Origin: Candidatus Sungiibacteriota bacterium
GTDB lineage: Bacteria; Patescibacteriota; Minisyncoccia; Sungbacterales; HO2-52-23
DNA length: 64,000 bases
Direction: 5' to 3'
Assembly: GCA_016432465.1 (NCBI GenBank)
Contig: CP066690.1
Location: 398,823 to 462,822 of the forward strand
The notes under the pieces: generated by a model
Database searches by the model: none
What the model was told of the DNA's origin: nothing
The model's input: the letters and a program-made list of their open reading frames with translations, nothing else
Shown: one piece after another, positions 5,944 through 59,075 of the stretch
Numbering within the stretch: the stretch's first letter is position 1
How the letters are laid out: each line of letters opens with the position of its first letter
Program-made: the position numbers and the translations under genes

Positions 5944-6345
5944 TTGTGGGGTGGCCGGGGTGGATTACAGATGTCTCTACCGCCGCTGGAAGTCCTTTGG
6001 AAATTTTATGCAATTACTGGCCTGACTGTACTTTTGATCGTTTTTACGCCGCTTAAAAACTGGGGCTGGAAAAAGTGGTGGTATATTTTCTGCACATCAA
6101 GTTTTACGGACTATTTAAGCACTCTTCTTTTTGTTTATGTTTACGGCCTCGGTTGGCAGGCCGAAGGTAACGAAATTATACAAAAGTACGGAGCATCTTT
6201 TGGTTACCTCTTCGTGCTTAACCTGCATATGGTAGTGCCTGTATTGCTGGCTTATCTGGTTGGTTGTTGGTTAAACAGGGTTACACGATTGGGAGCCATA
6301 ACTCTTTTAGCCGTATTTTCTTTTTTGAATTTTACGCAACCTTAA
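5944..6345 (+). CDS. Hypothetical integral membrane protein
   Basis: 133 aa with about 4 predicted TM segments. Confidence 0.4.
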   Translation: MWGGRGGLQMSLPPLEVLWKFYAITGLTVLLIVFTPLKNWGWKKWWYIFCTSSFTDYLSTLLFVYVYGLGWQAEGNEIIQKYGASFGYLFVLNLHMVVPVLLAYLVGCWLNRVTRLGAITLLAVFSFLNFTQP

Positions 6346-6541
6346 GCAACGTTATTTATCCAGTTGTCGATATCTCACGCCTATTTGGCTAGCCGCGTCA
6401 ACAAACGCGGCATTTTTAAATCTTGTCCTGCACAATTTTGCGGACGCGAGAAAACGGATGGATTGCTTTTCTGCTAACTTGACATTATAATTTCCATGCG
6501 GGGTGAGGAGCAGTATGCCGGCAAGCCGGGACTCATAAACA

Positions 6542-6781: not shown

Positions 6782-6917
6782 GCCGCCGAAGTATTCTGCT
6801 TTAAGCTGGAGTACTTCGGCGGGGTGGAGGAGCAGTACCTCGCCAGGCTCATAACCTGGAGGCGTCGGCGCACATCCGGCCCCCGCAATCCTTCGCTAAA
6901 GCTTCGGAATTGCTAGC

Positions 6918-9382: not shown

Positions 9383-9518
9383 GGTGCACCCCCCTTTGTT
9401 GATACCGATACAGCCCGGTATAAAAAACCAGGGCCTTTATAATTCTACAAAATATAATAACAATTGTCAACTGGCCGTAAATTAAAAATGGAGCCGTCCT
9501 CGGCTCCACGTTGCGCAG

Positions 9519-10217
9519 TTAGGCTTTGGTGGCCCCTGCGAGCTTTTTCTTCCGCTCCGCGATCTTCGCCTGCGCCAGCGCAACCGCTGCATCCTGACCA
9601 GACTTGTCACGGAAAGTTCCCAGGGCGCCCTCAAACTTTACATCTGCAACGTCGGCCTCACGCTGCATCCGGGCCACAACGTTGTCAACAGAAACCGTCT
9701 CCCCCGAAGCCACAATATCACTTGCCATCTTCATTGCGTGCGCAGCTTCTTCTTTGGCCTTGGTGGAATGTTCCATGGCCTCAAGCTGCTGAATGCGCTG
9801 AACCATTGCGGCGTGTTTGGCCTTGAGCGCAGACACAGCTTCTTTCATCTTCCCAGCAGTTGTCGTGGCTGACTCAAGCTCTTCTTTCTTGGCAACAAGA
9901 AGATTACTTACACCATCAAGCTCAACCTGTTTTGCCGTTGCTACGTGGTCATTGTTTGGATCGTCATCGCCCAGGATGAGGTTGATTGCCCCATCCAATT
10001 CTGTAACACGTCGTTCCAAAGTCCTCTGGTCACGTCCCAGCGTACGGACGTAACCCTCTGCTTCAGCAGCAGCAGCTTGAAGGTCCGTAAGCGAACCCTC
10101 AAGGTCACGCACATATTGCTTTACGGCACCGGTTGAATCCAGATCAACCACCGTATCTAGAAGTTTGTGGGCCCTACTAAGGAAAATAATCCGTGCCTTC
10201 TCAAAAAGACCAGCCAC
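9519..10217 (-). CDS. PspA/IM30 (phage shock protein A / Vipp1) family protein
   Basis: N-terminus MAGLFEKARIIFLSRAHKLLD plus a coiled-coil layout typical of PspA, in 232 aa. Confidence 0.75.
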   Translation of the reverse strand: MAGLFEKARIIFLSRAHKLLDTVVDLDSTGAVKQYVRDLEGSLTDLQAAAAEAEGYVRTLGRDQRTLERRVTELDGAINLILGDDDPNNDHVATAKQVELDGVSNLLVAKKEELESATTTAGKMKEAVSALKAKHAAMVQRIQQLEAMEHSTKAKEEAAHAMKMASDIVASGETVSVDNVVARMQREADVADVKFEGALGTFRDKSGQDAAVALAQAKIAERKKKLAGATKA

Positions 10218-10495
10218 GGTTCCTCCTTTCAGCCCTCAACGGGCTACTAACAGTCTAACAAAATTGGGGTGCATTGTCAAGGTTTTTTATGCGGAACGTA
10301 AGATACGTTACAGCGTGGCCGTTTCTTGCCCGCTGGCCGGAAAATTGGTATATTATTATAGAGTTGTGCCGGTGTAGCCCCGACGTAAAGTCGGGGGTCG
10401 GGATCCCGACCGTCAGCGTCGGGACTCATCCCACCTTTTGTGTCAGGGTAGCTCAGTCGGTAAGAGCGTGGCACTCATAACGCCAAGGTCGCTTG

Positions 10496-10631
10496 TCCCC
10501 CACCTATTCTGGATAAAACACAAATTAATACTAGGGCTGGGTAGCTCAGTTGGTAGAGCGAGGGAATCATAAACCCTAGGTCGTGGGTTCAATCCCCACC
10601 CCAGCCAAAACAATCCAGAATAGGTGGGGGA
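10496..10631. repeat. 16/17-bp perfect inverted repeat (tcccccacctattctgg / ccagaataggtggggga) enclosing a complete tRNA(CAT)
   Basis: Bases 10496-10512 and 10615-10631 are exact reverse complements. Confidence 0.75.
10535..10607 (+). tRNA. tRNA, anticodon CAT (Met/fMet or Ile2)
   Basis: Canonical cloverleaf: acceptor ggctggg/cccagcc, D arm gctcagttggtagagc, loop atCATaa, T arm gtgggttcaatccccac. No encoded CCA. Confidence 0.8.
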
Positions 10632-10727
10632 TGAAGTTCGATTCCCACCCCTGACAGTCAAAAAGATGGGAGGACAAACAAGCGTTAGGTCATAGGTTCA
10701 ATTCCTATCACCGGCACACGAAAAACC

Positions 10728-11051
10728 ATGGAACAACGTGAAGAATACTATTTACTGCCGGAGGAAAAATGGGCTCGGCGGATAGCAGAAAGGTCCCAAC
10801 TCTGGATATCCATTATTGAAGAGTCCGATATTGACCCCGAAGTTAAAAGAGGGTTGGTTGAACTTATAAAACTTAAAAGCGACAATAAAGCTATCTTGGG
10901 GGACTCGGTTGACGATTGGGCTTATACCACTATTAGCGCTCTGCTAACCAAGCTAACCAAGATAAAAAATGTCAGCCCCGCCGATAAGTCGGCATTATTT
11001 GAAAATATCCGGGACGATATTTGGAAATTTCATAAAGAATTAAACGAGTAG
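10728..11051 (+). CDS. Hypothetical protein
   Basis: 107-aa ORF between tRNA clusters with no recognisable motif. Confidence 0.4.
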   Translation: MEQREEYYLLPEEKWARRIAERSQLWISIIEESDIDPEVKRGLVELIKLKSDNKAILGDSVDDWAYTTISALLTKLTKIKNVSPADKSALFENIRDDIWKFHKELNE

Positions 11052-11234
11052 AACCGTGATTAAAAAAGTTAAGAGTAAGTATATCGTGCTTTCAGAGACT
11101 ACGGGGCGATCGTTTGGAACGTACAAAACCTTGGCCAAGGCCCAACGCCGCCTGCGGCAGATTGAATTCTTCAAAAAATTAAAACAAAATCCGGCGTTGG
11201 TAGGACGCGGGTAAAAAATCTTTAAGAAAAATCA

Positions 11235-11567
11235 ATGACCGCCGAAAAACCAGACGAAGAAAAACTAAACAAGGGGCTTCCTGACAGACAACTGCCGACC
11301 CAAGAGCAGATGCAAGAGGCGTTTAACACCGAGGGGCGCTTGATTGAAAAGCATCGCGAGTGGATTGCTTTAGTGTTGGATCTAGTCAGCAAGGGGGAAA
11401 TCTCGCCCAATGGTAAAGTAGAAATTCCTATTGATCCGGAAACGGAAACAATTCTTAAAGCAGACCTTAAAGACGGAAATATAAATACGCTGGCCATTCA
11501 TCTTATGGGCAAACAGGTTTTTTACATAGATTTTAGACGTTTACATCAATCGTTGCTGAAAAAATAA
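11235..11567 (+). CDS. Hypothetical protein
   Basis: 110-aa acidic ORF. Confidence 0.4.
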   Translation: MTAEKPDEEKLNKGLPDRQLPTQEQMQEAFNTEGRLIEKHREWIALVLDLVSKGEISPNGKVEIPIDPETETILKADLKDGNINTLAIHLMGKQVFYIDFRRLHQSLLKK

Positions 11568-11677
11568 AACAGTAGCGGCCGCGAGTATATCTAAACAAAG
11601 CCCTCCGCTTGTCCCTAATAAAACGGCCATTAGAAACAGCCGGAAGTATTCGTCTCCTTGCCCGCCCCGCTTATAGC

Positions 11678-11752
11678 GGGCCGTTAGAACAGCCTGGAGT
11701 GTTCGTCTCCTTGTCACGGAGAAGGTCACGGGTTCAAATCCCGTACGGCCCG
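11678..11752 (+). tRNA. tRNA-Asp(GTC)
   Basis: Acceptor gggccgt/acggccc, D stem gaac/gttc, anticodon arm tctcc-ttGTCac-ggaga, T arm acgggttcaaatcccgt. No CCA. Confidence 0.75.
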
Positions 11753-11770
11753 CTATGTGCGGGGTTCATA

Positions 11771-12109
11771 GAGAAGGTCACGGGTTCAAATCCCGTACGG
11801 GATTTGAGGGGGCGAAAGATAAAGTCTTTCGCGGGAAATTTAGCGAGCCAGTGAAACTGTGCGAGCGTTAAAAATTTCCCGGGGTTTGCCGAGGAGGCAA
11901 ACTGAAAAACGCAAACTTCTTTGCGTTTTGAAAACCCGGGGTCAAAGCACTGCTTTGACGGGCATTTTAGCGAGCCGTCCTGAGTTTATCGAAGGACGTG
12001 CGAGCGTTAAGAAATGCCCGGGAATTTGTCGAGGAGACAAATTCGAAGGAGCGCGAAGCCTGCCGGAGGCAGTGCGTAGCGCGGGTGAGGAAAAATCCCG
12101 TACGGCCCG
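11771..12109 (+). repeat. Long variant of the tRNA-associated structured repeat element, flanked by duplicated tRNA-Asp T-arm/3'-end segments
   Basis: Bases 11771-11800 duplicate the tRNA-Asp T arm. The internal 45-nt unit gcgagcgttaa.aaat.cccggg..tttg.cgaggag.caaa occurs twice. The hairpin aaaacgcaaacttctttgcgtttt is followed by gaaaaccc. The element ends gcgggtgagga, followed by aaaatcccgtacggcccg, which duplicates 11735-11752. Confidence 0.6.
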
Positions 12110-12283
12110 TAGATAAAATAAAGTGGTGGCGCAAGCTACCATTTTATTTTGTCTTATGGGCTAGGCGAGATTTGAAGGGTATTCCAAAACGCAAACTGCT
12201 TTGCGTTTTGGAAACCCAGTTGGGATCACGTGTATTAGTATGATAACTGAATAAAAGGAGCCACTTTTCTGTGGCTCGATGAT

Positions 12284-12556
12284 TCACTCCACCAATCTAT
12301 GATTCCTGTAGTAATATCGGGTCTCATTGAAGTTGCGAAGAGCAGCTGTGCATTCCACACATCCATAAGTCCACGTTGCTCCATGTTCTTCACAAAAATA
12401 TTTATCCAACGGGCCTTCTTTTTTCCCTACGATTATCGTCTTTCCGGACTTTTTTGAACCTGCCGCGCTCTGGCTTGCTGCTATCTTTTTCATCCCCTTC
12501 AACACATACGAACGATCCATTGCTATGATTACATATTCAGATATTGGTGTCAACAA
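12284..12556 (-). CDS. Hypothetical small Cys-containing protein
   Basis: 90-aa ORF; the real start is possibly at MDRSYVLKG. Confidence 0.3.
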   Translation of the reverse strand: MLTPISEYVIIAMDRSYVLKGMKKIAASQSAAGSKKSGKTIIVGKKEGPLDKYFCEEHGATWTYGCVECTAALRNFNETRYYYRNHRLVE

Positions 12557-13474: not shown

Positions 13475-14611
13475 ATGGAATTAGATATAGCACCAAAAAA
13501 AGAAGAGGAGTTAAGGGGAAAGCTCGCGAAAAAACACGACCCGGAAAGCGAACGACTGGTTCGTTTTCTTGCCATGCCCGATCTTTCCCGCACCACAGGA
13601 AGCCCTATTAATGAACTAGTACAGCGCATTATAAAGCTGAAGGATTTTGCGGACTTTGATATTATTCGGGTTCCGGAAATTGTGCCTGTGGATATAAGTT
13701 TTGATCTTTTTGATTTTCCGCAAGACCACCCGGCGCGCTCCCGGTCAGATACCTACTACGTGGACGAAAAACACATCCTGCGAACCCACACCACTATTAT
13801 GTGGTACTACTGGCTGAACGAGCCAGAAGTAAAAAGTAAAATTGAAAAAGGTAAAAGCATTGGTGCGTTATCATACGGGAAAGTGTACCGCAAAGACGAA
13901 ATAGACCGGCAGCATATGAACGTATTTCACCAGATGGATGGATGGTATCTTTGCCGGAAGGACGAAAAAATAATTACATCCGAAGATTTACAGAACGTGC
14001 TGGTTGAAATAGCCAAAGCGGTGTTTGGTAAGGACGTGAAATACCGCTTTAATGAAGATACGTTTCCGTATACGGACCCGAGTTTGGAAATGGAGATAGA
14101 AAAGAACGGAAAGTGGATTGAGGTACTGGGAAGTGGAGTAGTAAAGGGAAGCGTTCTTAAAAATTTGGGCGTTGACCCGAATCTTTATAACGGCTGGGCA
14201 TTCGGATTCGGCTTGGAGCGCTTGGCGATTGTAAGCATGGAACTGCCGGACATAAGATTGCTCTGGTCTGAGGACGAGCGCGTAAAAAAACAACTGCGCT
14301 TAGGAAATAAGTTTAAAGAAGTCAGTAAATTTCCCCCCATTACCCGCGACATTTCCTTTATTGTTGATAAAAACTTCATCCCCAATAATTATTTTGATCT
14401 GATAAGAGACATCGGCGGGAATATAGTTGAAGAGGTCCGGCTATTGGATAAATATGAAAATCCGGAAAAATTCGGCCCAGACAAAATAAGCTACACATAT
14501 CGAATCGTATACAGAAGCAACGAACGGACCCTCGAGACCAAAGGGGTAGATCCCATACAAGATAAGATATATCTGGAGACCAAAAAACAATTTAGGGCGG
14601 AACTTAGATAA
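13475..14611 (+). CDS. pheS: Phenylalanine--tRNA ligase alpha subunit
   Basis: Class II motif 3 FGFGLERLAI with upstream motifs. The 378-aa protein has N- and C-terminal extensions. Confidence 0.85.
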   Translation: MELDIAPKKEEELRGKLAKKHDPESERLVRFLAMPDLSRTTGSPINELVQRIIKLKDFADFDIIRVPEIVPVDISFDLFDFPQDHPARSRSDTYYVDEKHILRTHTTIMWYYWLNEPEVKSKIEKGKSIGALSYGKVYRKDEIDRQHMNVFHQMDGWYLCRKDEKIITSEDLQNVLVEIAKAVFGKDVKYRFNEDTFPYTDPSLEMEIEKNGKWIEVLGSGVVKGSVLKNLGVDPNLYNGWAFGFGLERLAIVSMELPDIRLLWSEDERVKKQLRLGNKFKEVSKFPPITRDISFIVDKNFIPNNYFDLIRDIGGNIVEEVRLLDKYENPEKFGPDKISYTYRIVYRSNERTLETKGVDPIQDKIYLETKKQFRAELR

Positions 14612-15572: not shown

Positions 15573-18500
15573 TTGGCAAAGAAAAAATCTAGGGCCAAAA
15601 CCAAAAAACGACTGCCCAAACGCCCTCCTCGTCAAAAAAGACGGACTATTAGGGCTGGGTCAAAAACCCCCACAACAAAATCCGGCGAATCGTATACAGC
15701 CAAAGACATTTATGTTTTGGAGGGACTAGAGCCGGTACGGAAACGTCCGGGAATGTATATCGGCTCAACCGGAGTTGACGGCCTGCATCATTTAATTTGG
15801 GAGGTGCTAGACAACAGTATTGACGAGGCTATGGCAGGATATGCCAAAAACGTCGCCATAACGCTTTTGGGGAACAATAAAGTAATGGTAATTGACGACG
15901 GTCGTGGAATACCGGTTGAAACACATAAACAAACAAAAAAATCGGCTTTAGAAACAGTAATGACCACGCTTCATGCCGGGGCCAAATTTGGAGGCGAGTC
16001 CTACAAGGTTTCCGGCGGACTTCACGGCGTAGGGGTTTCGGTTGTCAACGCTCTTTCTATTTGGATGAAAACGGAGGTGTGCCGTGACGGATATCAGTAT
16101 GCGCAGGAATATTCGCGCGGCAAACCCAAATATGCTGTAAAAAAAACGGGAAAGTGCCGAGGCTCCGGAACGGCAGTTACTTTTGAACCCGACCCAGAAG
16201 TATTTGAAAAAATACAGTTTGACTGGGAGCGAATCCTTGACCACATCAGACAACAGGCCTATCTCACCAAAGGAGTAAAAATTTCAGTGATTGACCGGCG
16301 AGAAGGCGGAAGGGCTAAAGATAATTCATCGCTCGAAACCCAATACTCGTTCTATTTTGAAGGTGGCATCATTTCCTATATTCAGTATCTCAACAGAAAC
16401 GAAGCACCCAAACACGAAAATATTTTTTATGTCTCTAAAGAGGCCGGTATCGACGGGAAAAAACTTTTAGTGGAGGCGGCTTTTCAGTATACGGACGATC
16501 TGCAAGGAAAAGAGGTTTCTTTTGCTAATAATATCCACACTGGCGAGGGCGGCATGCATCTTACCGGATTCCGTACCGCCCTAACACGCGCCTTAAACGA
16601 CTATGCCCGTAAAAATGAATACTTTAAAAAAGACGACGAAACACTTACCGGCGACGACGTACGCGAAGGAATTACTGCGATAATTTCTGTAAAATTGCGG
16701 GAGCCGCAGTTTGAAGGACAAACCAAGGCCAAACTTGGAAATCCCGAAGCGCGCACGGCCGTAGAAACAGTCGTGGGGGAATCAGTAAAAGAATGGCTGG
16801 AAAAATATCCGCGCGACGCGCAGGAAATTATTGGAAAAGCGCTTCTGGCGCAAAAAGCGCGAAAAGCTGCCAAGGCGGCGCGGGATACCGTACTGCGTAA
16901 AGGCGCGTTTGAGGGCCTAATGCTTCCGGGGAAACTTGCTGATTGCCAATCGCGCAATCCGGAGGAGTCGGAATTGTTTCTGGTGGAGGGGGATTCCGCA
17001 GGGGGCTGTTTTTCCGGAGACACAAAGATTGCCTTATTAGACGGACGCAATCTATCATTCAGAGAACTTATTCCAGAGGCAAGGGCTGGAAAAAAACATT
17101 ACTGTTACACCATGCGCAACGATGGAAGTATTAATATCGCTCAAATTGTAAATCCGCGTCTGACCAAAAGTAAAGCAGAAGTCATAAAAATTATCTTGGA
17201 TAACGACGAAGAAATTGTTTGTACCACAGATCATAAATTTATGTTGGCCGACGGCTCTTTTAAGGAGGCGCGGTGTCTGCAACCGCAAGATTCCCTTATG
17301 CCTCTATATCGTCAATTTTCTAAACTCGGAGGGCGAATCACTATTAAAGGATATGAGATGGTATACGACCCCCTTGAGCTCCGCTGGATTTTCACCCACC
17401 TTCTTTCTGACAGATATAATCTTGAACACAGCACCTACCTCGAAAGCGACGGCGCACATCGACACCACAAAGATTTTAACAAACTAAACAACAACCCAGA
17501 AAATATTATACGCCTCACCGATGAAAACCACTTAGAACTGCATCGGCGCTTAGCGAAAATGTTTCTTCATCGTCCAGAAATTCAGGCGAAAGCGACGGCT
17601 ACAAAACGCACGGCTACCTACCGAGAAATGGCACGCCAAAAGACACTTGAAAAAAAGGGGCTCTTTAGCAGAAACGCAAAAAAACAATGGGAAAATGATA
17701 CGTATAAACAATATATGTTGAAAAAGTTTCTGGAATTTTATAGGACACACGAGGAATATAGAAAAAAGAATAACCAGCTGCTTGATAAAATACAAAAGAA
17801 ATACTGGGCAGATGAGAAGAACAGAGAAAAACAGGCACTGCGGACAAAAGAATTTTTCATAACTAATCCGGACAGAAAAATACGGCTTGCCGAAATCGCA
17901 AAACAACAATGGAGAGATGAAAAACTGCTACGCTGGCGCGCGTCAAAAACGCGCGGGCAATGGACGCCGGAATTTCGAGTAAAACGATATGCTGCATATA
18001 ATCAGACGTATCTGCGCAAAGCCCTTGAAGTACTCAGGCAAATTTACGATAAATACGGGTCCGCCAGTGAACAGAAATACAACGAAATTCGCCAAAGGAC
18101 TGGTGATAGGAACTTAATTAGACTTTCAACAGTCTGCCAAAGGTTTTTTGAAAATGATCAAAAAAAACTTACAGAGGCAGTAATAAATTATAATCACAAG
18201 GTTAAAAAAGTAATTCCGTTAGCGGAGCATATAGATGTATACGACCTTGAAGTCCCGGAGACACACAACTTCGCACTGGCCTCCGGGGTGTTTGTCCATA
18301 ACAGCGCAAAGCAGGGCCGCGATAGAAAATTTCAGGCGATTCTGCCTCTTCGCGGAAAAATTTTAAATGTGGAAAAAGCGCGTCTGGACAAAATGCTCGC
18401 CTCCAAAGAAATTAAATCACTAATCATTGCTCTTGGCGCTGCCATTGGCGACGAATTTGACGAATCACGGCTCCGCTATCATCGCACCGTTATAATGACC

Positions 18501-18989
18501 GACGCTGACGTTGACGGCGCGCACATCCGAACCCTGCTTCTTACTCTTTTTTATCGCTATTTTCCAATCGTGGTTGAACGCGGTTACTTATATATAGCCC
18601 AACCGCCTTTGTATAGAATTCAGTCGGGGAGGGTTGTTCATTATGCCTATTCTGACGCGGAGAAAGATAAACTGGTTGCTGAATTTAAAAAGCAAAAATT
18701 AGAAACCAAACGCGTCCGGACAGAGGCTAAGGGTACCGAGGTGTCCGAAGAAGTAATGGAGGAAACAAAGGGTATTATTATTCAACGCTACAAAGGCTTG
18801 GGCGAGATGAATCCGTCCCAACTTTGGGAAACCACCATGGATCCGCAAATCCGTACCATGAAGCAGGTCACACTAGAAGACGCCACAGAAGCGGACAGAA
18901 TTTTTGATATTTTGATGGGGGACGAAGTGTTGCCGCGAAAGAAATTTATACAAACTCACGCCAAAGCAGTTAAAAATTTAGACATCTAA
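15573..18989 (+). CDS. gyrB: DNA gyrase subunit B, interrupted in-frame by an intein
   Basis: GHKL ATPase motifs (GLHHLIWEVLDNSIDEAMAGYA) and the TOPRIM motif EGDSAGG. C-terminal gyrB motifs are present. The protein is 1138 aa including a 432-aa intein. Confidence 0.9.
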   Translation: MAKKKSRAKTKKRLPKRPPRQKRRTIRAGSKTPTTKSGESYTAKDIYVLEGLEPVRKRPGMYIGSTGVDGLHHLIWEVLDNSIDEAMAGYAKNVAITLLGNNKVMVIDDGRGIPVETHKQTKKSALETVMTTLHAGAKFGGESYKVSGGLHGVGVSVVNALSIWMKTEVCRDGYQYAQEYSRGKPKYAVKKTGKCRGSGTAVTFEPDPEVFEKIQFDWERILDHIRQQAYLTKGVKISVIDRREGGRAKDNSSLETQYSFYFEGGIISYIQYLNRNEAPKHENIFYVSKEAGIDGKKLLVEAAFQYTDDLQGKEVSFANNIHTGEGGMHLTGFRTALTRALNDYARKNEYFKKDDETLTGDDVREGITAIISVKLREPQFEGQTKAKLGNPEARTAVETVVGESVKEWLEKYPRDAQEIIGKALLAQKARKAAKAARDTVLRKGAFEGLMLPGKLADCQSRNPEESELFLVEGDSAGGCFSGDTKIALLDGRNLSFRELIPEARAGKKHYCYTMRNDGSINIAQIVNPRLTKSKAEVIKIILDNDEEIVCTTDHKFMLADGSFKEARCLQPQDSLMPLYRQFSKLGGRITIKGYEMVYDPLELRWIFTHLLSDRYNLEHSTYLESDGAHRHHKDFNKLNNNPENIIRLTDENHLELHRRLAKMFLHRPEIQAKATATKRTATYREMARQKTLEKKGLFSRNAKKQWENDTYKQYMLKKFLEFYRTHEEYRKKNNQLLDKIQKKYWADEKNREKQALRTKEFFITNPDRKIRLAEIAKQQWRDEKLLRWRASKTRGQWTPEFRVKRYAAYNQTYLRKALEVLRQIYDKYGSASEQKYNEIRQRTGDRNLIRLSTVCQRFFENDQKKLTEAVINYNHKVKKVIPLAEHIDVYDLEVPETHNFALASGVFVHNSAKQGRDRKFQAILPLRGKILNVEKARLDKMLASKEIKSLIIALGAAIGDEFDESRLRYHRTVIMTDADVDGAHIRTLLLTLFYRYFPIVVERGYLYIAQPPLYRIQSGRVVHYAYSDAEKDKLVAEFKKQKLETKRVRTEAKGTEVSEEVMEETKGIIIQRYKGLGEMNPSQLWETTMDPQIRTMKQVTLEDATEADRIFDILMGDEVLPRKKFIQTHAKAVKNLDI
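17007..18302 (+). mobile_element. Intein (432 aa) with HNH-type homing endonuclease domain inside gyrB
   Basis: It starts with Cys right after EGDSAGG (CFSGDTKIALLDG, block A). It ends ...VFVHN followed by Ser (SAKQGRD). Its internal HNH-like motif is DGAHRHHKDFNKLNNNPENIIRLTDENHLELH. Confidence 0.8.
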
Positions 18990-21072: not shown

Positions 21073-21221
21073 ATCCCCCCACCTTCCCAGAATACCCTAC
21101 AGCTTGGTCTACTCCGCCGAAGCAGCCAGCTCACGCTGCGAAGGCTGGACTGCGGGGATGAATGGGCGTCGTAGAAATCCTTCCCGCGGGGTCCAATACC
21201 CAACTGGGAAGGTGGGGGGAT
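21073..21221. repeat. 18-bp perfect inverted repeat pair (atccccccaccttcccag / ctgggaaggtggggggat) enclosing about 113 nt
   Basis: Bases 21073-21090 and 21204-21221 are exact reverse complements of each other. The same tcccccacc/ggtggggga ends are seen at 10496/10631 and 40960/40989. Confidence 0.7.
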
Positions 21222-40959: not shown

Positions 40960-40989
40960 ATCCCCCCACCTTCCGGTTGGTGGGGGGAT
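40960..40989. repeat. Stand-alone hairpin with the tcccccacc/ggtggggga inverted-repeat ends
   Basis: atccccccacc-ttccggtt-ggtggggggat lies immediately upstream of the tRNA array. Confidence 0.6.
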
Positions 40990-40997
40990 GAACCTGC

Positions 40998-41072
40998 TGG
41001 GGGATCTGCTAATTGGCAGGCGACTGGACTTTGGATCCAGAGATGAAGGTTCGAATCCTTCTCCCCCAGCCA
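40998..41072 (+). tRNA. tRNA-Gln(TTG)
   Basis: Acceptor tggggga/tccccca with discriminator g and CCA. The anticodon arm is ctgga-cttTGga-tccag and the T arm is gaaggttcgaatccttc. Confidence 0.7.
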
Positions 41073-41111
41073 AGTCTGACTTGGCCCAGCCAACCTCTGA
41101 CAAAATCCTGC

Positions 41112-41187
41112 TGCAGGGTCGGATAACTGGCAATCCAACGGACTGTTAATCCGTACGATGAGGGTTCGAATCCCTCCCCTGCAGCCA
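41112..41187 (+). tRNA. tRNA-Asn(GTT)
   Basis: Acceptor tgcaggg/ccctgca, anticodon arm acgga-ctGTTaa-tccgt, T arm gagggttcgaatccctc, CCA encoded. Confidence 0.75.
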
Positions 41188-41215
41188 ATCCTACTAATAG
41201 ATAGGGGATTCGAGT

Positions 41216-41291
41216 TGGGAGGTCGTCTAACTGGTAGGACGCCGGGCCCTGAACTCGGAAACCGAAGGTTCGAACCCTTCCCTCCCAACCA
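41216..41291 (+). tRNA. tRNA-Gln(CTG), with an atypical anticodon loop
   Basis: Acceptor tgggagg/cctccca, anticodon arm ccggg-ccCTGaa-ctcgg, T arm gaaggttcgaacccttc, CCA encoded. Confidence 0.55.
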
Positions 41292-41345
41292 AGCTAATCT
41301 TGGCCAACCAATTTGCTTTGCGTAACCTGCTTGACCATTATCTGT

Positions 41346-41419
41346 TGCGGGGAGAGCTGGCGCTCCCACCGGTCTCATAAGCCGAGTGGCGTGCGGTTCA
41401 ATTCCGCCCTCCGCAACCA
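41346..41419 (+). tRNA. tRNA, anticodon CAT (Met/Ile2), with a short D arm
   Basis: Acceptor tgcgggg/ctccgca, loop ctCATaa, T arm tgcggttcaattccgcc, CCA encoded. Confidence 0.6.
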
Positions 41420-41429
41420 AACTCCATGT

Positions 41430-41507
41430 CAGGGTGTCGCCCAGTCCGGCCAGGGCGCTTGGCTTGGGACCAAGAGGTCGTAGGTTCAAATCCTACCACC
41501 CTGACCA
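41430..41507 (+). tRNA. tRNA-Pro(TGG)
   Basis: Acceptor cagggtg/caccctg, D stem gccc/gggc, anticodon arm cttgg-ctTGGga-ccaag, T arm gtaggttcaaatcctac, CCA. Confidence 0.75.
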
Positions 41508-41540
41508 ACTCTTTTTTGATAAATCAGGACGCGTTTCAGT

Positions 41541-41616
41541 GGGGCCGTAGCTCAGTTGGGAGAGCGCCTGACCTGCAATCAGGGGGTCGTCGGTTCAAGT
41601 CCGACCGGTTCCACCA
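41541..41616 (+). tRNA. tRNA-Ala(TGC)
   Basis: Acceptor ggggccg/cggttcc with the G3:U70 pair, anticodon arm cctga-ccTGCaa-tcagg, T arm gtcggttcaagtccgac, CCA. Confidence 0.8.
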
Positions 41617-41643
41617 AAAACTTTTGGATGCAGTTCAAACGGG

Positions 41644-41720
41644 GCGGGTGTGGCCGAATGGCTAAGGCGCCAGCCTTCCAAGTTGGTTTTTTGTGGGTTC
41701 GAGTCCCACCACCCGCTCCA
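41644..41720 (+). tRNA. tRNA-Trp(CCA)
   Basis: Acceptor gcgggtg/cacccgc, anticodon arm ccagc-ctTCCAa-gttgg, T arm gtgggttcgagtcccac, CCA. Confidence 0.7.
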
Positions 41721-41863
41721 AATTTGATAAGAGGGACTCGAAGGGTATTTTAAAAAGCAAATGTTTTTGCTTTTTAAAAACCCAGGCTCCGAAGGAGCGC
41801 GGAGCCTCCGACAGAAGTCGGAGTGCGAAGCGCGAGTGAGGAGGAGTCCCACCACCCGCTCCA
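41721..41863 (+). repeat. tRNA-associated structured repeat element (copy 1) with a 20-nt duplication of the tRNA-Trp 3' end
   Basis: Core gggactcgaagggtatttt + hairpin aaaaagcaaatgtttttgcttttt + aaaaccc + ggctccgaaggagcgcggagcc + tccgacagaagtcggag + tgcgaagcgcgagtgaggagg. Then gagtcccaccacccgctcca, identical to 41701-41720. Confidence 0.7.
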
Positions 41864-41893
41864 AGACTTTTCTTCCCAGAGTCGAATATCGGT

Positions 41894-41968
41894 GGTGACC
41901 TTGGCCGAGAGACGAGGCATCGGACTGTGGCTCCGAGCACGTGGGTTTGAATCCCATAGGTCACCCCA
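41894..41968 (+). tRNA. tRNA-His(GTG) with encoded G-1
   Basis: g-gtgacct...aggtcac-c-cca; anticodon arm tcgga-ctGTGgc-tccga; T arm gtgggtttgaatcccat. Confidence 0.75.
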
Positions 41969-41980
41969 ACCCCTTCTGGT

Positions 41981-42056
41981 GTGGCTGTCGCCGAAATGGA
42001 CAGGCGCCAGATTGCAAATCTGGTCTATGCGGGTTCGAATCCCGTCAGCCACTCCA
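41981..42056 (+). tRNA. tRNA-Cys(GCA)
   Basis: Acceptor gtggctg/cagccac, anticodon arm ccaga-ttGCAaa-tctgg, T arm gcgggttcgaatcccgt, CCA. Confidence 0.75.
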
Positions 42057-42086
42057 AATCTGATCAACCAAACCACTTGAATCCGG

Positions 42087-42162
42087 GCCACGGTAGCTCA
42101 GACGGTAGAGCGCTGGTCTGAAGAACCGGAGGTCGCTAGCTCGAAACTAGCCCGTGGCACCA
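42087..42162 (+). tRNA. tRNA-Phe(GAA)
   Basis: Acceptor gccacgg/ccgtggc, D arm gctcagacggtagagc, anticodon arm ctggt-ctGAAga-accgg, T arm gctagctcgaaactagc, CCA. Confidence 0.8.
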
Positions 42163-42173
42163 AGATTCCCTGC

Positions 42174-42252
42174 GGTGGCGTAGCTTAGCCAGGCCTAAAG
42201 CGCCGGCCCGTCAAGCCGGAGGTCACGGGTTCGAATCCCGTCGCCATCGCCA
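42174..42252 (+). tRNA. tRNA-Asp(GTC)
   Basis: Acceptor ggtggcg/cgccatc, anticodon arm ccggc-ccGTCaa-gccgg, T arm acgggttcgaatcccgt, disc g, CCA. Confidence 0.7.
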
Positions 42253-42284
42253 AGTCTGACTTGGCCATCGCCAAATCGTTGAGT

Positions 42285-42359
42285 GGGCGGTTAGCTCAGC
42301 GGAAGAGCATCTCGTTTACACCGAGGGGGTCGTAGGTTCAAATCCTACACCGCCCACCA
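42285..42359 (+). tRNA. tRNA-Val(TAC)
   Basis: Acceptor gggcggt/accgccc, D arm gctcagcggaagagc, anticodon arm tctcg-ttTACac-cgagg, T arm gtaggttcaaatcctac, CCA. Confidence 0.75.
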
Positions 42360-42412
42360 AGTCTGACTTGGCCCGCCAAACAACACACTAAAATTAATAA
42401 CGGTAGGACAGC

Positions 42413-42499
42413 GGGTCGGAGCGGTGATGGGTGACACCAGCGGACTCCAAATCCGTCGACCAAATGGTCTTGGGGGTTCGAATCCTCCCCGGCCCGCCA
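42413..42499 (+). tRNA. Class II (long variable arm) tRNA with anticodon CCA; its body is near-identical to tRNA-Tyr
   Basis: Acceptor gggtcgg/ccggccc. Its D arm gagcggtgatgggtgacaccagc is identical to the Tyr tRNA at 42637. The anticodon arm is gcgga-ctCCAaa-tccgt. Long variable arm, T arm gggggttcgaatcctcc, CCA. Confidence 0.5.
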
Positions 42500-42535
42500 A
42501 GTCTGACTTGGCCCGCCAACCCAAAAAAATCCAGT

Positions 42536-42612
42536 GTGCCGTTAACTCAGCCCGGTAGAGTTCCAGACTCTTAATCTGGGAGCCAGAGGTTCGAATCCTC
42601 TACGGCACACCA
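42536..42612 (+). tRNA. tRNA-Lys(CTT)
   Basis: Acceptor gtgccgt/acggcac, anticodon arm ccaga-ctCTTaa-tctgg, T arm agaggttcgaatcctct, CCA. Confidence 0.75.
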
Positions 42613-42636
42613 AGTCTAAACCGAAATATCAGAGGT

Positions 42637-42724
42637 GGGTGGGAGCGGTGATGGGTGACACCAGCGGACTGTAACTCCGTGGGACCAAAAATCCTTGTAG
42701 GTTCAAATCCTACCCCACCCACCA
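42637..42724 (+). tRNA. tRNA-Tyr(GTA), class II
   Basis: Acceptor gggtggg/cccaccc, anticodon arm gcgga-ctGTAac-tccgt, long variable arm, T arm gtaggttcaaatcctac, CCA. Confidence 0.75.
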
Positions 42725-42748
42725 AACCCAAACAATAGAAACTCTTGT

Positions 42749-42831
42749 GCCGGGGTGGTGGAATTGGTAGACACTGCGGACTTAGGATCCGCTGGGCAAC
42801 CGTGCAGGTTCGAGTCCTGTCCCCGGCACCA
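42749..42831 (+). tRNA. tRNA-Leu(TAG), class II
   Basis: Acceptor gccgggg/ccccggc, anticodon arm gcgga-ctTAGga-tccgc, long variable arm, T arm gcaggttcgagtcctgt, CCA. Confidence 0.75.
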
Positions 42832-42842
42832 GATTTCCAAGT

Positions 42843-43070
42843 CGCGGGATGGCGGAACTTGGCAGACGCTCCAGATCGAGGGTCTGGTGGGAAACCGTGA
42901 GGGTTAAAATCCCGTCGCCATCGCCAAGTCTGACCAAACGGGATTTGAAGGGTATTTCAAAACATGAATGTCTTCATGTTTTGAAAACCCGGGTTCCGAA
43001 GGAGCGCGGAGCCTCCGACAGAAGTCGGAGTGCGAAGCGCGGGTGAGGAAAAATCCCTCTCCCGCGACCA
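42843..43070 (+). tRNA. tRNA-Leu(GAG)-like class II gene interrupted within its T loop by a 144-nt insertion
   Basis: The 5' part (42843-42913) has acceptor cgcggga, anticodon arm ccaga-tcGAGgg-tctgg and T stem/loop gagggttaaaatccc. The matching 3' part, aaaatccctc-tcccgcg-a-cca, is at 43050-43070. Confidence 0.5.
42914..43057 (+). repeat. tRNA-associated structured repeat element (copy 2) inserted in a tRNA T loop, carrying a tRNA-Asp-like 3' fragment
   Basis: gtcgccatcgccaagtctgacc resembles the tRNA-Asp 3' end plus the palindrome. Then the core ggatttgaagggtatttcaaaacatgaatgtcttcatgttttgaaaacccgggttccgaaggagcgcggagcctccgacagaagtcggagtgcgaagcgcgggtgagga; flanked by duplicated aaaatccc. Confidence 0.65.
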
Positions 43071-43097
43071 CACAAATAATTGTGACCAGCAGACAGA

Positions 43098-43175
43098 GCA
43101 CCCGTAGCTCAATCGGACTAGAGCGTCTGCCCTGTAAGCAGAGGGTTGTCAGTTCAAATCTGACCGGGTGCTCCA
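43098..43175 (+). tRNA. tRNA-Thr(TGT)
   Basis: Acceptor gcacccg/cgggtgc, anticodon arm tctgc-ccTGTaa-gcaga, T arm gtcagttcaaatctgac, CCA. Confidence 0.7.
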
Positions 43176-43219
43176 CCAAGCTCAGCTTGGTCCATCAATC
43201 CAGAGCTTGATATTCCGGT

Positions 43220-43306
43220 GGTGGGATGGCTGAGTCTGGCTTAAGGCAGCGGTTTGCTAAACCGTGGGCGAAAGCCTCGAGGGTTCAAATCCTTCTCCCA
43301 CCGCCA
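43220..43306 (+). tRNA. tRNA-Ser(GCT), class II
   Basis: Acceptor ggtggga/tcccacc, anticodon arm gcggt-ttGCTaa-accgt, long variable arm, T arm gagggttcaaatccttc, CCA. Confidence 0.7.
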
Positions 43307-43372
43307 AGTCTAACTTGGCTGGGGCCAAGTCTGATTTGATCACCAAAAACGAATTTCTTTTTGAAAATCAGG

Positions 43373-43448
43373 GCGCCCATAGCTCAGCGAATAGAGCGCC
43401 CCGCTACGGACGGGGAGGTCGCGGGTTTAAATCCTGCTGGGCGCTCCA
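43373..43448 (+). tRNA. tRNA-Arg(ACG)
   Basis: Acceptor gcgccca/tgggcgc, anticodon arm ccccg-ctACGga-cgggg, T arm gcgggtttaaatcctgc, CCA. Confidence 0.75.
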
Positions 43449-43458
43449 AATGCTCGGT

Positions 43459-43536
43459 GCCCGAGTAGCCCAACTGGCAGAGGCAGCGGACTTAAAATCC
43501 GAAAAGTGGTGGGTTCGAATCCCCCCTCGGGCACCA
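43459..43536 (+). tRNA. tRNA with anticodon TAA (Leu-like acceptor and T arm) but no long variable arm
   Basis: Acceptor gcccgag/ctcgggc with disc a and CCA; anticodon arm gcgga-ctTAAaa-tccga; variable region only about 5 nt; 78 nt total. Confidence 0.45.
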
Positions 43537-43549
43537 AATACTACAAAAT

Positions 43550-43680
43550 GGGATTCGAAGGGTATTTCAAAACATGAATGTCTTCATGTTTTGAAAACCC
43601 GGGCTCCGAAGGAGCGCGGAGCCTCCGACAGAAGTCGGAGTGCAAAGCGCGGGTGAGGAGGAATCCCCCCTCGGGCACCA
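43550..43680 (+). repeat. tRNA-associated structured repeat element (copy 3) with a 20-nt duplication of the upstream tRNA 3' end
   Basis: The core matches copy 2 almost exactly (ggattcgaagggtatttcaaaacatgaatgtcttcatgttttgaaaacccgggctccgaagg...gcgggtgaggagg). It is followed by gaatcccccctcgggcacca, which is identical to 43517-43536. Confidence 0.7.
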
Positions 43681-43702
43681 AAAGCGTCAAAGGAAACGCG
43701 GT

Positions 43703-43778
43703 GCAGGGATAGCTCAGTTGGTAGAGCACTGGACCGATAATCCAGAGGTCGATGGTTCGAACCCATCTCCCTGTACCA
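43703..43778 (+). tRNA. tRNA-Ile(GAT)
   Basis: Acceptor gcaggga/tccctgt, anticodon arm ctgga-ccGATaa-tccag, T arm gatggttcgaacccatc, CCA. Confidence 0.7.
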
Positions 43779-43817
43779 ACCAAAGTTCTTTTTAAAAACA
43801 ACCAAAATCTGACGTGG

Positions 43818-43896
43818 GGGCCCGTAGCTCAGCCAGGACCAGAGCAGGGGACTTCTAATCCTCTGGCCGGAGGTTCAAATCCTCCCGGGCCTACCA
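43818..43896 (+). tRNA. tRNA-Arg(TCT)
   Basis: Acceptor gggcccg/cgggcct, anticodon arm gggga-ctTCTaa-tcctc, T arm ggaggttcaaatcctcc, CCA. Confidence 0.7.
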
Positions 43897-48684: not shown

Positions 48685-48916
48685 ATCATGTCTTTCGTCG
48701 GTCTCTGTGTATGGATATTCTCCGTAGTACTCTTGCCAAGATTCTTTGTAATTTTTTTCGCTCGTATGATTAAAGATTTTCTTTTCCCAAAATTAAAATA
48801 CAGTTCGAGCCGACCCCGAACAAATTTGCTTCACAAATTTAACGGGGCAAGTATTTTTACAGGTTCTTTGGCGGTTTTTATCAGCGCGGCGGAGCCGCGA
48901 TTTCGGAATTTCGCGA

Positions 48917-48989: not shown

Positions 48990-49844
48990 TCACAAATTTA
49001 ATTTATTCTCTAGCGCGATCTTTGGGTAGAGATCAGTAGGATAAATTTCAACCAATTTAATGCTTTGCTTCTTGCAGAAGTTTCTTTTTCTTCTAACCTC
49101 TCTGTCGTATCGCGGACTGTCTTTTAAAAGACCAAAATATTCAACGAAGGTATTTCCTATTACCCAATCCGCGCGGAAATTCGTATCAGGATATCTGGTT
49201 CCCTTTAAATGCACTATGCCCCGTTTAGTTAACCAATTATCAATTATTGCTTCAGAGATAGAATCACATAAGTGCCCGTCAGATGCTTTTGCATTCATTC
49301 TTTTATACATGCGGTGACCGTGAGACCGATGGGGTTTTAAACCAGCAGCTAGAATTGTATCATTCCAAGAACCAAAATGTTTCCTTCCAGCCTCTGAAAT
49401 ATTTCTTAACTCTCTCCTCACTGGTACTCTCTTAAGTTCTTTGTGGGCAAGGCGGATCAGTTTCAAGACTTCTTTAGCTGTAAATCGGGTCCTTGCCAAA
49501 TAACCGCATTTCCGTGAACAATATTTGCCGTCTCGTTTAAACGTATTTCCGCAGGATAAACATGCCGTAGGGAGTCTGATCCTCTTTGGAAACCTTCGAT
49601 TATTTACCTGAGCCGCACAGGATCGAGAACAATAGTTATGTGCTGAAATATCATTTGGCTGCCGAGTAAATTCCGTCATGCAGTTTCCACAATTTACTAT
49701 CCTTGCCTTTGTCTTATACTGAAATTCGCAACTTCGAGAGCAATAAAAATTATGCCCAAATTTTAAATTCTCGTTTATTCTACCCCGACTTCTATAAATC
49801 GGGTTAGAGCACTTATTACAAGAAACTTTATATAGCTTTTCCAT
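48990..49844 (-). CDS. Multi-zinc-ribbon protein with C-terminal DUF559/Vsr-like endonuclease-fold region
   Basis: At least five CxxC/CxxxC pairs in the N-terminal 130 aa. The C-terminus RADWVIGNTFVEYFG resembles PD-(D/E)xK Vsr/DUF559 proteins. Confidence 0.4.
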   Translation of the reverse strand: MEKLYKVSCNKCSNPIYRSRGRINENLKFGHNFYCSRSCEFQYKTKARIVNCGNCMTEFTRQPNDISAHNYCSRSCAAQVNNRRFPKRIRLPTACLSCGNTFKRDGKYCSRKCGYLARTRFTAKEVLKLIRLAHKELKRVPVRRELRNISEAGRKHFGSWNDTILAAGLKPHRSHGHRMYKRMNAKASDGHLCDSISEAIIDNWLTKRGIVHLKGTRYPDTNFRADWVIGNTFVEYFGLLKDSPRYDREVRRKRNFCKKQSIKLVEIYPTDLYPKIALENKLNL

Positions 49845-49985
49845 ACCTACAAATATACTCGGGATACCCGGATTTGCACCGGGGCTACTGACCCCCGAAG
49901 CCAGCGTGCTACTGTTACACCATATCCCGAAAATTTTGGCGGGGGGCGATGCATGTTGCCGCTACACTAATCCCCGACAACTAAG

Positions 49986-58748: not shown

Positions 58749-58882
58749 GATAAAATTACCTTGGTTTAGGCCACGTCTCGACCCTGGTCGGGACTCAACC
58801 GGCCCCGCACTGAAATCCTAGCTCAATCTGTAAATTTACAGGTAGCCCCCCATAGCTTAATTGGCCCCGCACTAAAATTTAT

Positions 58883-58955
58883 CCGTCCCTAGCTCAACTG
58901 GTAGAGCAGCTCCCTCTTAAGGAGACGGTTCCGAGTTCGAGTCTCGGGGGACGGA
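58883..58955 (+). tRNA. tRNA-Lys(CTT), second copy
   Basis: Acceptor ccgtccc/gggacgg, D arm gctcaactggtagagc, anticodon arm gctcc-ctCTTaa-ggaga, T arm ccgagttcgagtctcgg. No CCA. Confidence 0.7.
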
Positions 58956-59075
58956 CTGGATAAATTTAGTACGGGGTAAACGCCGCAGCTCCGTGGGTTA
59001 CAGGCCTGCCCCGCATACAGCTATGCTGTTGTGTGGGGTTCAACTCCTGGTGGGGGAAAATAAAAAAAGTCAGGC

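Follow-up and report, generated by a model that had tools for sequence, protein, structure and literature searches.

Several kinds of genetic element interrupt, split or enter tRNA genes. In the archaea Thermoproteales, Nanoarchaeum and Caldivirga, tRNA genes contain multiple and non-canonical introns or are split and even tri-split, and an archaeal tRNA-Trp intron encodes a box C/D RNA. Integrative elements such as phages and islands insert into tRNA genes and bring a substitute for the 3' part of the tRNA; they span kilobases, have an integrase gene and copy that 3' part alone. Free-standing homing endonucleases such as SegB of phage T4 drive the inheritance of neighbouring tRNA genes. The work nearest to ours describes group I introns at position 35/36 of the anticodon loop in the tRNA-Asn and the tRNA-Asp of Patescibacteria (PMC13011429). 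In this study, we report a nest of tRNA genes, in which an intact tRNA(CAT) lies within the halves of a second tRNA gene and both lie within the halves of a third, in a 64,000-nucleotide stretch of contig CP066690.1, hereafter the window. The window is part of the chromosome of a Candidatus Sungiibacteriota bacterium, a member of the Candidate Phyla Radiation (CPR, Patescibacteria). Full-text searches of the literature found no description of tRNA genes nested in tRNA genes in bacteria, and the arrangement in this genome and in many other CPR bacteria appears to be undescribed. The evidence favours disrupted genes with an inserted cassette over intron-containing tRNAs, and we lean towards the reading that tRNA cassettes with palindromic arms landed in resident genes for the same tRNA, replaced them and left decaying shells, so that the innermost tRNA alone works.

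The nests have features in common with each of the described systems. With the group I tRNA introns they share the phylum, a target in the anticodon loop (often 34/35 to 36/37) and an interrupted gene that is missed by standard finders; unlike these introns, they have no group I core or Rfam match, mostly lack a U before the 5' junction, and contain inserts that are too short for such an intron once the cargo tRNA is subtracted. No match to Intron_gpI was found at E ≤ 10 in positions 9500-12500 of the window or at E ≤ 1 in eight nest loci, and the arms of these sequences match no intron or ribozyme family of Rfam. As in the archaeal tRNAs, hairpin inserts are found in the D arm, the anticodon loop and the T arm, sometimes several together, a GC-rich helix holds the halves, and a functional RNA may lie within the insert, as in one known archaeal intron; the host is bacterial, however, the junctions show no bulge-helix-bulge, the cargo is a complete tRNA of the same anticodon, and many of the outer genes are defective. 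We know of no splicing endonuclease for bacterial tRNA inserts of this kind. The nests resemble integrative elements in their anticodon- or T-loop target, in tRNA function being preserved by the cargo and in the displaced fragments left behind, but a nest delivers a whole tRNA in about 100-150 nt, with 5' and 3' remnants flanking the cargo within 70-170 nt, and no integrase was found among the window open reading frames (ORFs) scanned. Miniature inverted-repeat transposable elements (MITEs), repetitive extragenic palindromes (REP) and Rickettsia palindromic elements are likewise short and non-coding, have terminal inverted repeats, occur in several copies with or without cargo, and may sit in structured-RNA genes; unlike these, the element of the nest has no target-site duplication or identified transposase, and its cargo is a functional-looking tRNA matching the disrupted target. 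The intervening sequences of 23S and 16S rRNA are also extended stem-loops in loops of a stable RNA, are co-transcribed with it, and would be a model for cutting without religation if the shells matter, whereas a cut anticodon loop would abolish decoding. To our knowledge, intervening sequences of the rRNA type are not known for tRNA.

Genes for tRNA were called using ARAGORN and the Rfam tRNA family RF00005 (gathering score 29 bits). The window contains 28 tRNAs, of which 24 form one array (40998-43896). For the protein scan, 38 ORFs of the window were compared with Pfam. Taxon labels of genome and metagenome matches are the submitters' own.

The innermost gene of the nest is the canonical tRNA(CAT) recognised in the preliminary description, and judged from its sequence it is the only functional-looking gene there. 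In the covariance-model search it scored above the gathering score and the 5' part of the middle shell below it (Table 1). The inverted repeat flanking the inner tRNA is perfect, as had been noted, although longer than the 16 bp first given: it extends over 19 nt at 100% complementarity (10496-10514 and 10613-10631), and to about 22-24 bp when G-T pairs are allowed, three G-T or A-T pairs adjoining the perfect part. The leader-trailer duplex of the inner tRNA has a folding energy of -42.6 kcal/mol (z-score, z, -8.9).

The middle shell is a tRNA gene broken between the variable region and the T arm, as first proposed, with the cut after AGGTC (48/49). Its acceptor strands GTCAGGG and CCCTGAC pair as expected, TGTCAGGG (10441-10448) being the complement of CCCTGACA (10649-10656). 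Over its 49-nt 5' piece and its 21-nt 3' piece the shell is 100% identical to a gene that stands intact and on its own in three groundwater metagenome loci (L235, L237 and L240), and the disrupted state is therefore derived. The 21-mer of the 3' piece occurs exactly in 15 metagenome loci, about 10 of which contain an uninterrupted, arm-less tRNA, and these intact genes are often clustered, with initiator, Asp and GTCAGGG-type CAT tRNAs together. A GTGG able to act as the 5' strand of the T stem sits within the right arm of the inserted element and is followed by 8 extra nt; the arm is assigned to the element because other copies of the element share it, and the middle shell is therefore short of four bases (T50-G53). 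ARAGORN finds no tRNA after removal of the element as one piece, and a join of three pieces restores a perfect tRNA identical to the intact genes elsewhere.

In the outermost shell the GCCGGTG and CACCGGC acceptor strands do pair as suggested, GCCGGTG beginning at 10368 and not at 10370, and the helix extends to 10 bp (TGTGCCGGTG 10365-10374 and CACCGGCACA 10709-10718). The break in this shell falls within the anticodon loop (CTCAT|AA). In the 3' part, loop positions 37-38 are followed by the 3' strand of the anticodon stem, the variable region, a T arm that is perfect, the acceptor strand and the discriminator; GTCGGG/CCCGAC hairpins have replaced the D and anticodon arms. The hairpin at 10378-10396 is identical to one within the outer tRNA of another genome (L129). 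The anticodon stem is unpaired (CGGGA against GCGTT), and ARAGORN found no tRNA in the joined shell, also after trimming. Thus the nested reading first put forward holds for the layers as such, while the T stem of the middle one is without a usable 5' strand and the outermost is no longer a tRNA by ARAGORN. On alignment to a reference tRNA, the three CAT layers are 73-82% identical and differ in their acceptor and anticodon stems. A tmRNA-like reading of the outer shell was rejected, as neither ARAGORN nor Rfam finds a tmRNA and the acceptor has no G3:U70.

A further closing helix, absent from the preliminary description, joins CATCCCACCTTTT (10427-10439) with AAAAGATGGGAGG (10661-10673), 11 of the 13 positions being paired. 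The predicted fold of the whole nest (10360-10725, 366 nt) has an energy of -159.6 kcal/mol compared with -111.5 ± 5.3 in shuffles (z -9.1). A trio of T-loop motifs at intervals of 50 and 60 nt, each shorter than a tRNA, occurs once in the window and in none of 100 shuffles. The promoter-like site upstream of the nest (Table 1) suggests a possible start of one transcript over all layers; the region contains three such sites against 2.1 ± 1.5 in shuffles, which is no excess.

The arms of the inner tRNA belong to a palindromic element with terminal inverted repeats, of which three copies are found in the 64 kb, one with tRNA cargo, one with cargo of another kind and one with none, all having the end ATCCCCC(C)ACCTWYC; the element boundaries are uncertain by a few nt. 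The right-arm ending GGTGGGGG(G)ATGAA is also common to the copy at 40979-40993, and GGTGGGGG occurs nine times in the window where 2.06 occurrences are expected. Its terminal inverted repeats (19 nt and perfect here) and its presence as more than one copy with shared ends are features known from MITEs and palindromic elements; no direct repeat flanks any insert inspected, and no transposase was found among the scanned window ORFs. CCYGCCYGCC, an arm motif of other nests, is not enriched as a dispersed repeat in the window. The 113-nt cargo of the second copy contains no tRNA and matches no Rfam family at E ≤ 10, and may be a small RNA by its predicted structure; signal recognition particle RNA was considered and discarded on the same Rfam result.

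The CAT nest is not the only one in the window. In the tRNA-Asp nest the inner and outer copies are 85-94% identical (two direct repeats, 94% and 88%), the outer copy is broken within its anticodon loop (TTG|TCAT), and leader and trailer form a helix of 13 bp. The 3' acceptor strand of the outer copy is overwritten by a perfect 11+11 palindrome (11786-11807), and ARAGORN finds no tRNA in the joined copy. A half nest at tRNA-Pro(cgg), for which no 3' partner was found, and an armed tRNA-Lys(ctt) were also identified. Leader-trailer pairing is confined to the CAT, Lys and Asp singletons of the 28 tRNAs, and the 24-tRNA array has none. The possibility that the arms are a general processing stalk for the precursor tRNAs of this genome was rejected, since 24 to 25 of the 28 tRNAs have no such pairing.

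Table 1. Nests, armed tRNAs and copies of the palindromic element, in coordinates of the window.
Feature	Position	Strand	Remarks
Promoter-like site TTGCCC-17-TATATT, TG-extended	10326-10354	+	Consensus scan; ~13 nt upstream of outermost shell
Outermost shell, 5' part	10368-10429	+	GCCGGTG acceptor, TA GCC, hairpin inserts, CTCAT anticodon-loop remnant
Hairpin insert of outermost shell, CCCCGACGTAAAGTCGGGG	10378-10396	+	
Hairpin insert of outermost shell, palindrome	10396-10411	+	
Hairpin insert of outermost shell, TCCCGAC-CGTCAGC-GTCGGGA	10404-10424	+	
Layer-2 insert, 5' arm CATCCCACCTTTT	10427-10439	+	Pairs with 10661-10673 in minimum-free-energy fold; CCCACC arm type as in L014, L036, L050
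Middle shell, 5' part	10442-10490	+	Acceptor GTCAGGG, D arm, anticodon arm CTCATAA, variable region AGGTC; canonical; Rfam 27.0 bits (below 29)
Palindromic element, left arm	10491-10514	+	Perfect repeat part 10496-10514; aligns with arms 21073-21090 and 40960-40970
Innermost tRNA(CAT)	10535-10607	+	Acceptor GGCTGGG, no encoded CCA; ARAGORN; Rfam 66.6 bits
Palindromic element, right arm ATCCAGAATAGGTGGGGGATGAAG	10613-10636	+	Perfect repeat part 10613-10631
Middle shell, 3' part	10636-10656	+	G53, T loop TTCGATT, T-stem 3' strand CCCAC, acceptor CCCTGAC, discriminator A
Layer-2 insert, 3' arm AAAAGATGGGAGG	10661-10673	+	Minimum-free-energy fold
Outermost shell, 3' part	10680-10716	+	AA GCGTT AGGTC ATAGG-TTCAATT-CCTAT CACCGGC A
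Second nest, tRNA-Asp	11624-11807	+	Found by search for two T arms less than a tRNA length apart
Asp nest, outer 5' part	11624-11660	+	Ends TTG
Asp nest, leader	11661-11677	+	
Asp nest, intact tRNA-Asp	11678-11752	+	
Asp nest, trailer	11753-11765	+	
Asp nest, outer 3' part	11766-11800	+	TCAT AGAGA AGGTC + T arm
Second element copy, ATCCCCCCACCTTCCCAG ... CTGGGAAGGTGGGGGGAT	21073-21221	+	Encloses 113-nt structured sequence, z -4.8
Third element copy, without cargo, ATCCCCCCACC-TTCCGGTT-GGTGGGGGGAT	40960-40989	+	8 nt upstream of 24-tRNA array
Half nest, tRNA-Pro(cgg)	49859-49976	-	Orphan Pro-like 5' fragment 49976-49947 (positions 1-31) and C-rich arm CCCCCCGCCAAAATTTT 49946-49930 precede intact gene
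Armed tRNA-Lys(ctt), gene from 58883	58865-58976	+	CCCCG...CGGGG arms 58865-58882 / 58960-58976; tRNA-like debris around; z -3.2

Recurrence of the arrangement was examined by a pattern scan of one genome per species (185,579 species), in which a T loop had to be followed within 20-48 nt by AGGTC and a second T arm. At least 120 loci matched, and among the matches listed the second T stem pairs at all five positions in about 100 of 121. An automatic nest filter, demanding an intact inner tRNA and an upstream 7-nt complement of the downstream acceptor, was passed by 27 of the matches listed, the upstream acceptor mostly being followed by TAGCTC; three or four of these have no tRNA-like continuation and look spurious, leaving about 24 nests. 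Among the listed matches with a perfect second T stem, 25 of the 31 labelled as CPR are nests (18 complete and 7 with acceptor mismatches) compared with 16 of the 64 others. The non-CPR and viral matches mostly have the look of classical attachment-site duplications, with a few viral nests of a different style. Two phage contigs (L134 and L154) hold arm-less nests, and in a giant-virus metagenome-assembled genome (MAG) from IMG/VR (L170, 1626-1801) a complete tRNA-Leu(TAA) lies in the anticodon-loop region of a tRNA-Thr(TGT)-like gene, which pairs two different isoacceptors in a virus of eukaryotes.

In these nests the anticodon is the same in the inner and outer tRNA wherever the outer one can be read (Thr, Val, Ile, Pro, Asp, Met and Ala). 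The split usually falls in the anticodon loop; sometimes the D arm is struck or the whole anticodon arm is replaced, and the latter has been lost in several outer genes (L036, L050, L085 and L111). Inserts are 100-290 nt long and are laid out as arm, linker, tRNA, linker and arm, with 72-77 nt taken up by the tRNA. The arms pair in most nests, and the median z of leader-trailer pairing is -3.3 for 23 nested tRNAs against -0.1 for 29 neighbouring tRNAs. The arm ends fall into families, CCCCG(TTA)...(TAA)CGGGGCAAG, CCYGCCYGCC...GGCRGGCRGG and CCCCCCACC...GGTGGGGGG, while the arm interiors vary freely. In the acceptor and T stems of 22 of 23 nests, the inner and outer genes show 2-8 differences that change both sides of a pair and keep it paired; over all 23 nests, 93 changes are two-sided and pair-keeping and 6 are one-sided. 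The two genes are therefore independently evolved tRNAs and not fresh local copies. Palindromes with the same arm ends and without cargo are found in outer shells only, and one of them, CCTGCCTGCCGGCAGGCAGG, occupies the same D-arm site in L014, L057 and L098. At that site (TAGA|GCG), L049 (contig CAZMGC010000038.1, ~6110-6362) has a cassette with tRNA cargo. L099 (2880-3177) contains a nest of three layers, with arms CCCCGCCCCTTTT and AAAAGGGGCGGGG around a Thr(CGT) nest of two layers; an orphan variable region with T arm and acceptor TGCGGGC comes after it.

Replacement of resident genes by tRNA cassettes would account for the window nest in two steps. A resident CAT gene with acceptor GCCGGTG would have been struck in its anticodon loop by a short cassette, consisting of a complete CAT tRNA gene with acceptor GTCAGGG between two complementary arms. 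That gene would later have been struck at the border of the variable region and the T stem by a second cassette, the palindromic element that recurs in this genome, bearing the present tRNA with acceptor GGCTGGG. Each insertion would kill the gene that it entered and deliver a working gene for the same tRNA, and would thus be tolerable even where the genome is tiny and most tRNA genes are single-copy. If only insertions that supply a substitute survive, the matching anticodons, the restriction of empty palindromes to dead shells, and the layering would be explained. The whole nest would probably be transcribed from the old resident promoter, whereupon arms and old acceptor strands might zip into one long helix from which RNase P and a 3' endonuclease or exonuclease free the innermost tRNA only, its end being completed by the CCA-adding enzyme encoded in the window. 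The promoter-like site, that enzyme and the lack of an encoded CCA on the nested tRNAs suggest such a release by RNase P and 3' processing. The shells would be by-products, decaying as more hairpins insert, small deletions occur and palindromes form, and their observed condition, ranging from clean to badly damaged, fits decay. The cassettes are further supported by arms that are specific to nested tRNAs, both in the window and in other genomes, and by lesions that no single excision mends (T50-G53 of the middle shell, the outermost shell and the outer Asp copy).

Several observations weigh against such replacement, and some of them speak instead for shells that function. No transposase, integrase or endonuclease was found in or beside the CAT and Asp nests, nor a target-site duplication, and mobility is without direct sign. 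The middle exons have no substitutions relative to the intact genes, the outermost shell keeps its acceptor helix of 10 bp and a perfect T arm, and outer stems in other genomes are often fully intact despite several inserts (L129, with three inserts and 21 of 21 stem pairs, and L052); this intactness could mean selection and not youth, and the nest filter, which demands that acceptor and T stem be paired, favours intact outer genes in the sample. The three CAT tRNAs of the window may be different functional species, Met and Ile2 being indistinguishable here, and the tRNA inventory against which the two broken CAT genes are judged is that of a 64-kb window in a 923-kb genome. A junction conserved in L028, L065 and L077, YT|TTCACCCCG...CGGGG|CA|AG|NAN with a covarying 4-bp helix, could by its sequence be a selected RNA motif. 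If the shells do function, the inserts would be bacterial tRNA intervening sequences with tRNA cargo, removed in the RNA so that one transcript gives two or three tRNAs, either by an unknown endonuclease and ligase or by cuts of RNase P, RNase Z or RNase III without religation, leaving a two-piece tRNA held by helices; we regard this as improbable. It would agree with the many outer genes that are split without loss or gain of a base (Thr TTCG|TAA, Ile CTGA|TAA, Pro, Asp TTG|TCAT and the outermost CTCAT|AA), with the perfect tRNA given by the three-piece join of the middle layer, and with insert arms that pair and vary while staying complementary. The L028, L065 and L077 junction can also be drawn as a helix, a 3-nt bulge, a 4-bp helix, a second 3-nt bulge and a helix, with one covarying pair, yet a cut there would not yield an anticodon loop of 7 nt. 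By inspection, no bulge-helix-bulge is present at the window junctions (10425-10441/10657-10681, 10488-10496/10631-10640 and 11656-11666/11760-11770), where the arms abut internal loops and not offset bulges. The lack of any Rfam intron or ribozyme also tells against functioning shells, as do the lesions outside the hairpin inserts (the absent T-stem strand, the anticodon stem that does not pair and, in the outer Asp copy, the loss of an acceptor strand), the acceptor mismatches in about a quarter of the CPR nests listed and the loss of the whole anticodon arm in several. A gene broken in its anticodon loop cannot decode without ligation, and no RtcB or EndA-type gene was found in the 38 window ORFs scanned (with shorter ORFs and several of 150-230 amino acids (aa) outside that scan). 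That the shells are not debris at all, and that Patescibacteria possess a protein- or RNase-based removal of hairpin-armed inserts, including whole tRNAs, from tRNA precursors, is in our estimate less probable again.

The nests might also have arisen in place, through palindrome-driven rearrangement (for example template switching or snap-back repair, with a tRNA gene and its flanks being partly duplicated) followed by decay, with neither a mobile element nor horizontal transfer. The close identity of the inner and outer Asp copies, the perfect palindrome over the outer Asp 3' end, a nest with identical inner and outer stems (L119), arm sequences that are specific to a genome and present at its other sites, and the lack of a mobility gene would all agree with such an origin. 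Duplication and decay cannot, however, produce the 2-8 compensatory differences of 22 of the 23 nests, the three CAT layers of the window differ in acceptor and anticodon stems, and related arm motifs (CCCCGTTA...TAACGGGGCAAG and CCYGCCYGCC...GGCRGGCRGG) recur across tRNA types and lineages; we consider an origin in place unlikely. An assembly artefact, in which strain variants of the tRNA locus were mis-stitched around the inverted repeat, is scarcely credible. All of the data are metagenome assemblies, and several Logan contigs stop at ~10488, which is expected of short-read graphs because of the inverted repeat there. An independent Logan contig, from run SRR12113419, crosses the whole locus and is 100% identical over the 510 nt between the flanking genes. 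Moreover, the same architecture occurs in scores of independent assemblies from various assemblers, within long contigs, and the nesting is ordered and in register with tRNA structure.

Between tRNA-Pro(cgg) and tRNA-Ala(cgc), and adjoining the Pro half nest, lies an ORF of 284 aa (48990-49844, - strand) with three CxxC...YCSxxC zinc ribbons and the homing-endonuclease-associated repeat PF18780. Its C-terminal domain (AlphaFold pLDDT 86.6) resembles the catalytic domain of the homing endonuclease I-Bth0305I (3r3p), with a Foldseek probability of 1.00 and a target TM-score of 0.73-0.75, but an E-value of 0.056-0.064. It has more than 360 homologs; those listed are 50-60% identical, and the named ones among them are from Patescibacteria. 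The position of such a gene beside the half nest recalls the SegB-type endonucleases. Unlike those systems, no homolog was found at or close to the CAT and Asp nests, nor in 220 further loci that were fetched, nest loci included, and the family keeps synteny with tRNA-Pro(cgg), the CCA-adding enzyme and tRNA-Arg(tcg), being conserved like a housekeeping gene. On the lack of a homolog in the fetched loci, a homing endonuclease was set aside as a general driver of the nests. Downstream of tRNA-Ala(cgc), at ~48822-48855 (- strand), is a hairpin, CCCCGTTAAATTTG-TGAAG-CAAATTTGTTCGGGG, of the arm type seen in the cassettes of four CPR genomes (L048, L065, L111 and L130).

Among the other tRNAs of the window, Asp(gtc) and Lys(ctt) each have one array copy and one armed or nested singleton of very different sequence; a 3' CCA is encoded in both aligned array tRNAs (Asp and Lys) and not in their dispersed or nested counterparts. 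An initiator-like tRNA at 6818-6888, with C1 opposite A72, loop CTCATAA and a T loop of GCACATC in place of TTCAAAT, is called by ARAGORN and scores below the Rfam gathering score. The array tRNA at 42412-42499 combines an acceptor stem of 8 bp and a long variable arm with anticodon CCA; in Rfam it fits tRNA-Sec best (48 bits against a gathering score of 47), ARAGORN calls it a tRNA-Trp of 87 nt, and its shape is Sec-like or 'allo-tRNA'-like with a Trp anticodon. Two ORFs between the CAT and Asp nests may not be real genes: that at 10728-11051 (107 aa, downstream of the CAT nest) had itself as sole match among 5.8 billion proteins, and that at 11235-11567 has no Pfam match. In related contigs the Asp and CAT tRNAs are separated by merely 16-50 nt.

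The window otherwise contains ordinary chromosomal genes, including those for DNA ligase, GatA, PheRS, GyrB, LeuRS, TsaD and the CCA-adding enzyme. PheRS (13475-14611) is single-chain, with a class II core and an FDX-ACB domain in a mitochondrial-type architecture, and GyrB (15573-18989) has an intein. A PspA-like neighbour of the nest is 100% identical to a protein encoded on a 923-kb contig of a Candidatus Sungiibacteriota MAG. A phage origin, suggested by the 28 tRNAs, was ruled out by these cellular genes, by the PspA match and by a similarity to phages that is limited to tRNAs. A scan of viral sequences with PspA gave no match, and neither did an exact search of viral contigs with the 19-mer of the nest arm. 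Next to PspA homologs of 55-67% identity (L011-L013) no tRNA was found, and synteny gave no orthologous nest.

If tRNA cassettes do replace resident genes in this way, the tRNA genes of the smallest bacterial genomes would be overwritten from inside, each cassette taking over the promoter and leaving a stratified record of earlier versions. Horizontal replacement of tRNAs would thereby have a new route, and the cassette would be a new kind of minimal selfish element, its insertion rendered harmless by its own cargo. Of a nest, standard tRNA finders list the inner gene alone, without the shells, and the inverted repeats of nests break short-read assemblies; inferences of completeness or of the genetic code that are based on the tRNAs of CPR genomes could be affected. 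Should the shells instead be processed into tRNAs, the question of protein-dependent tRNA splicing in Bacteria would be reopened, and such processing would be a bacterial counterpart of the multi-intron tRNA splicing of archaea or of fragmented rRNA.

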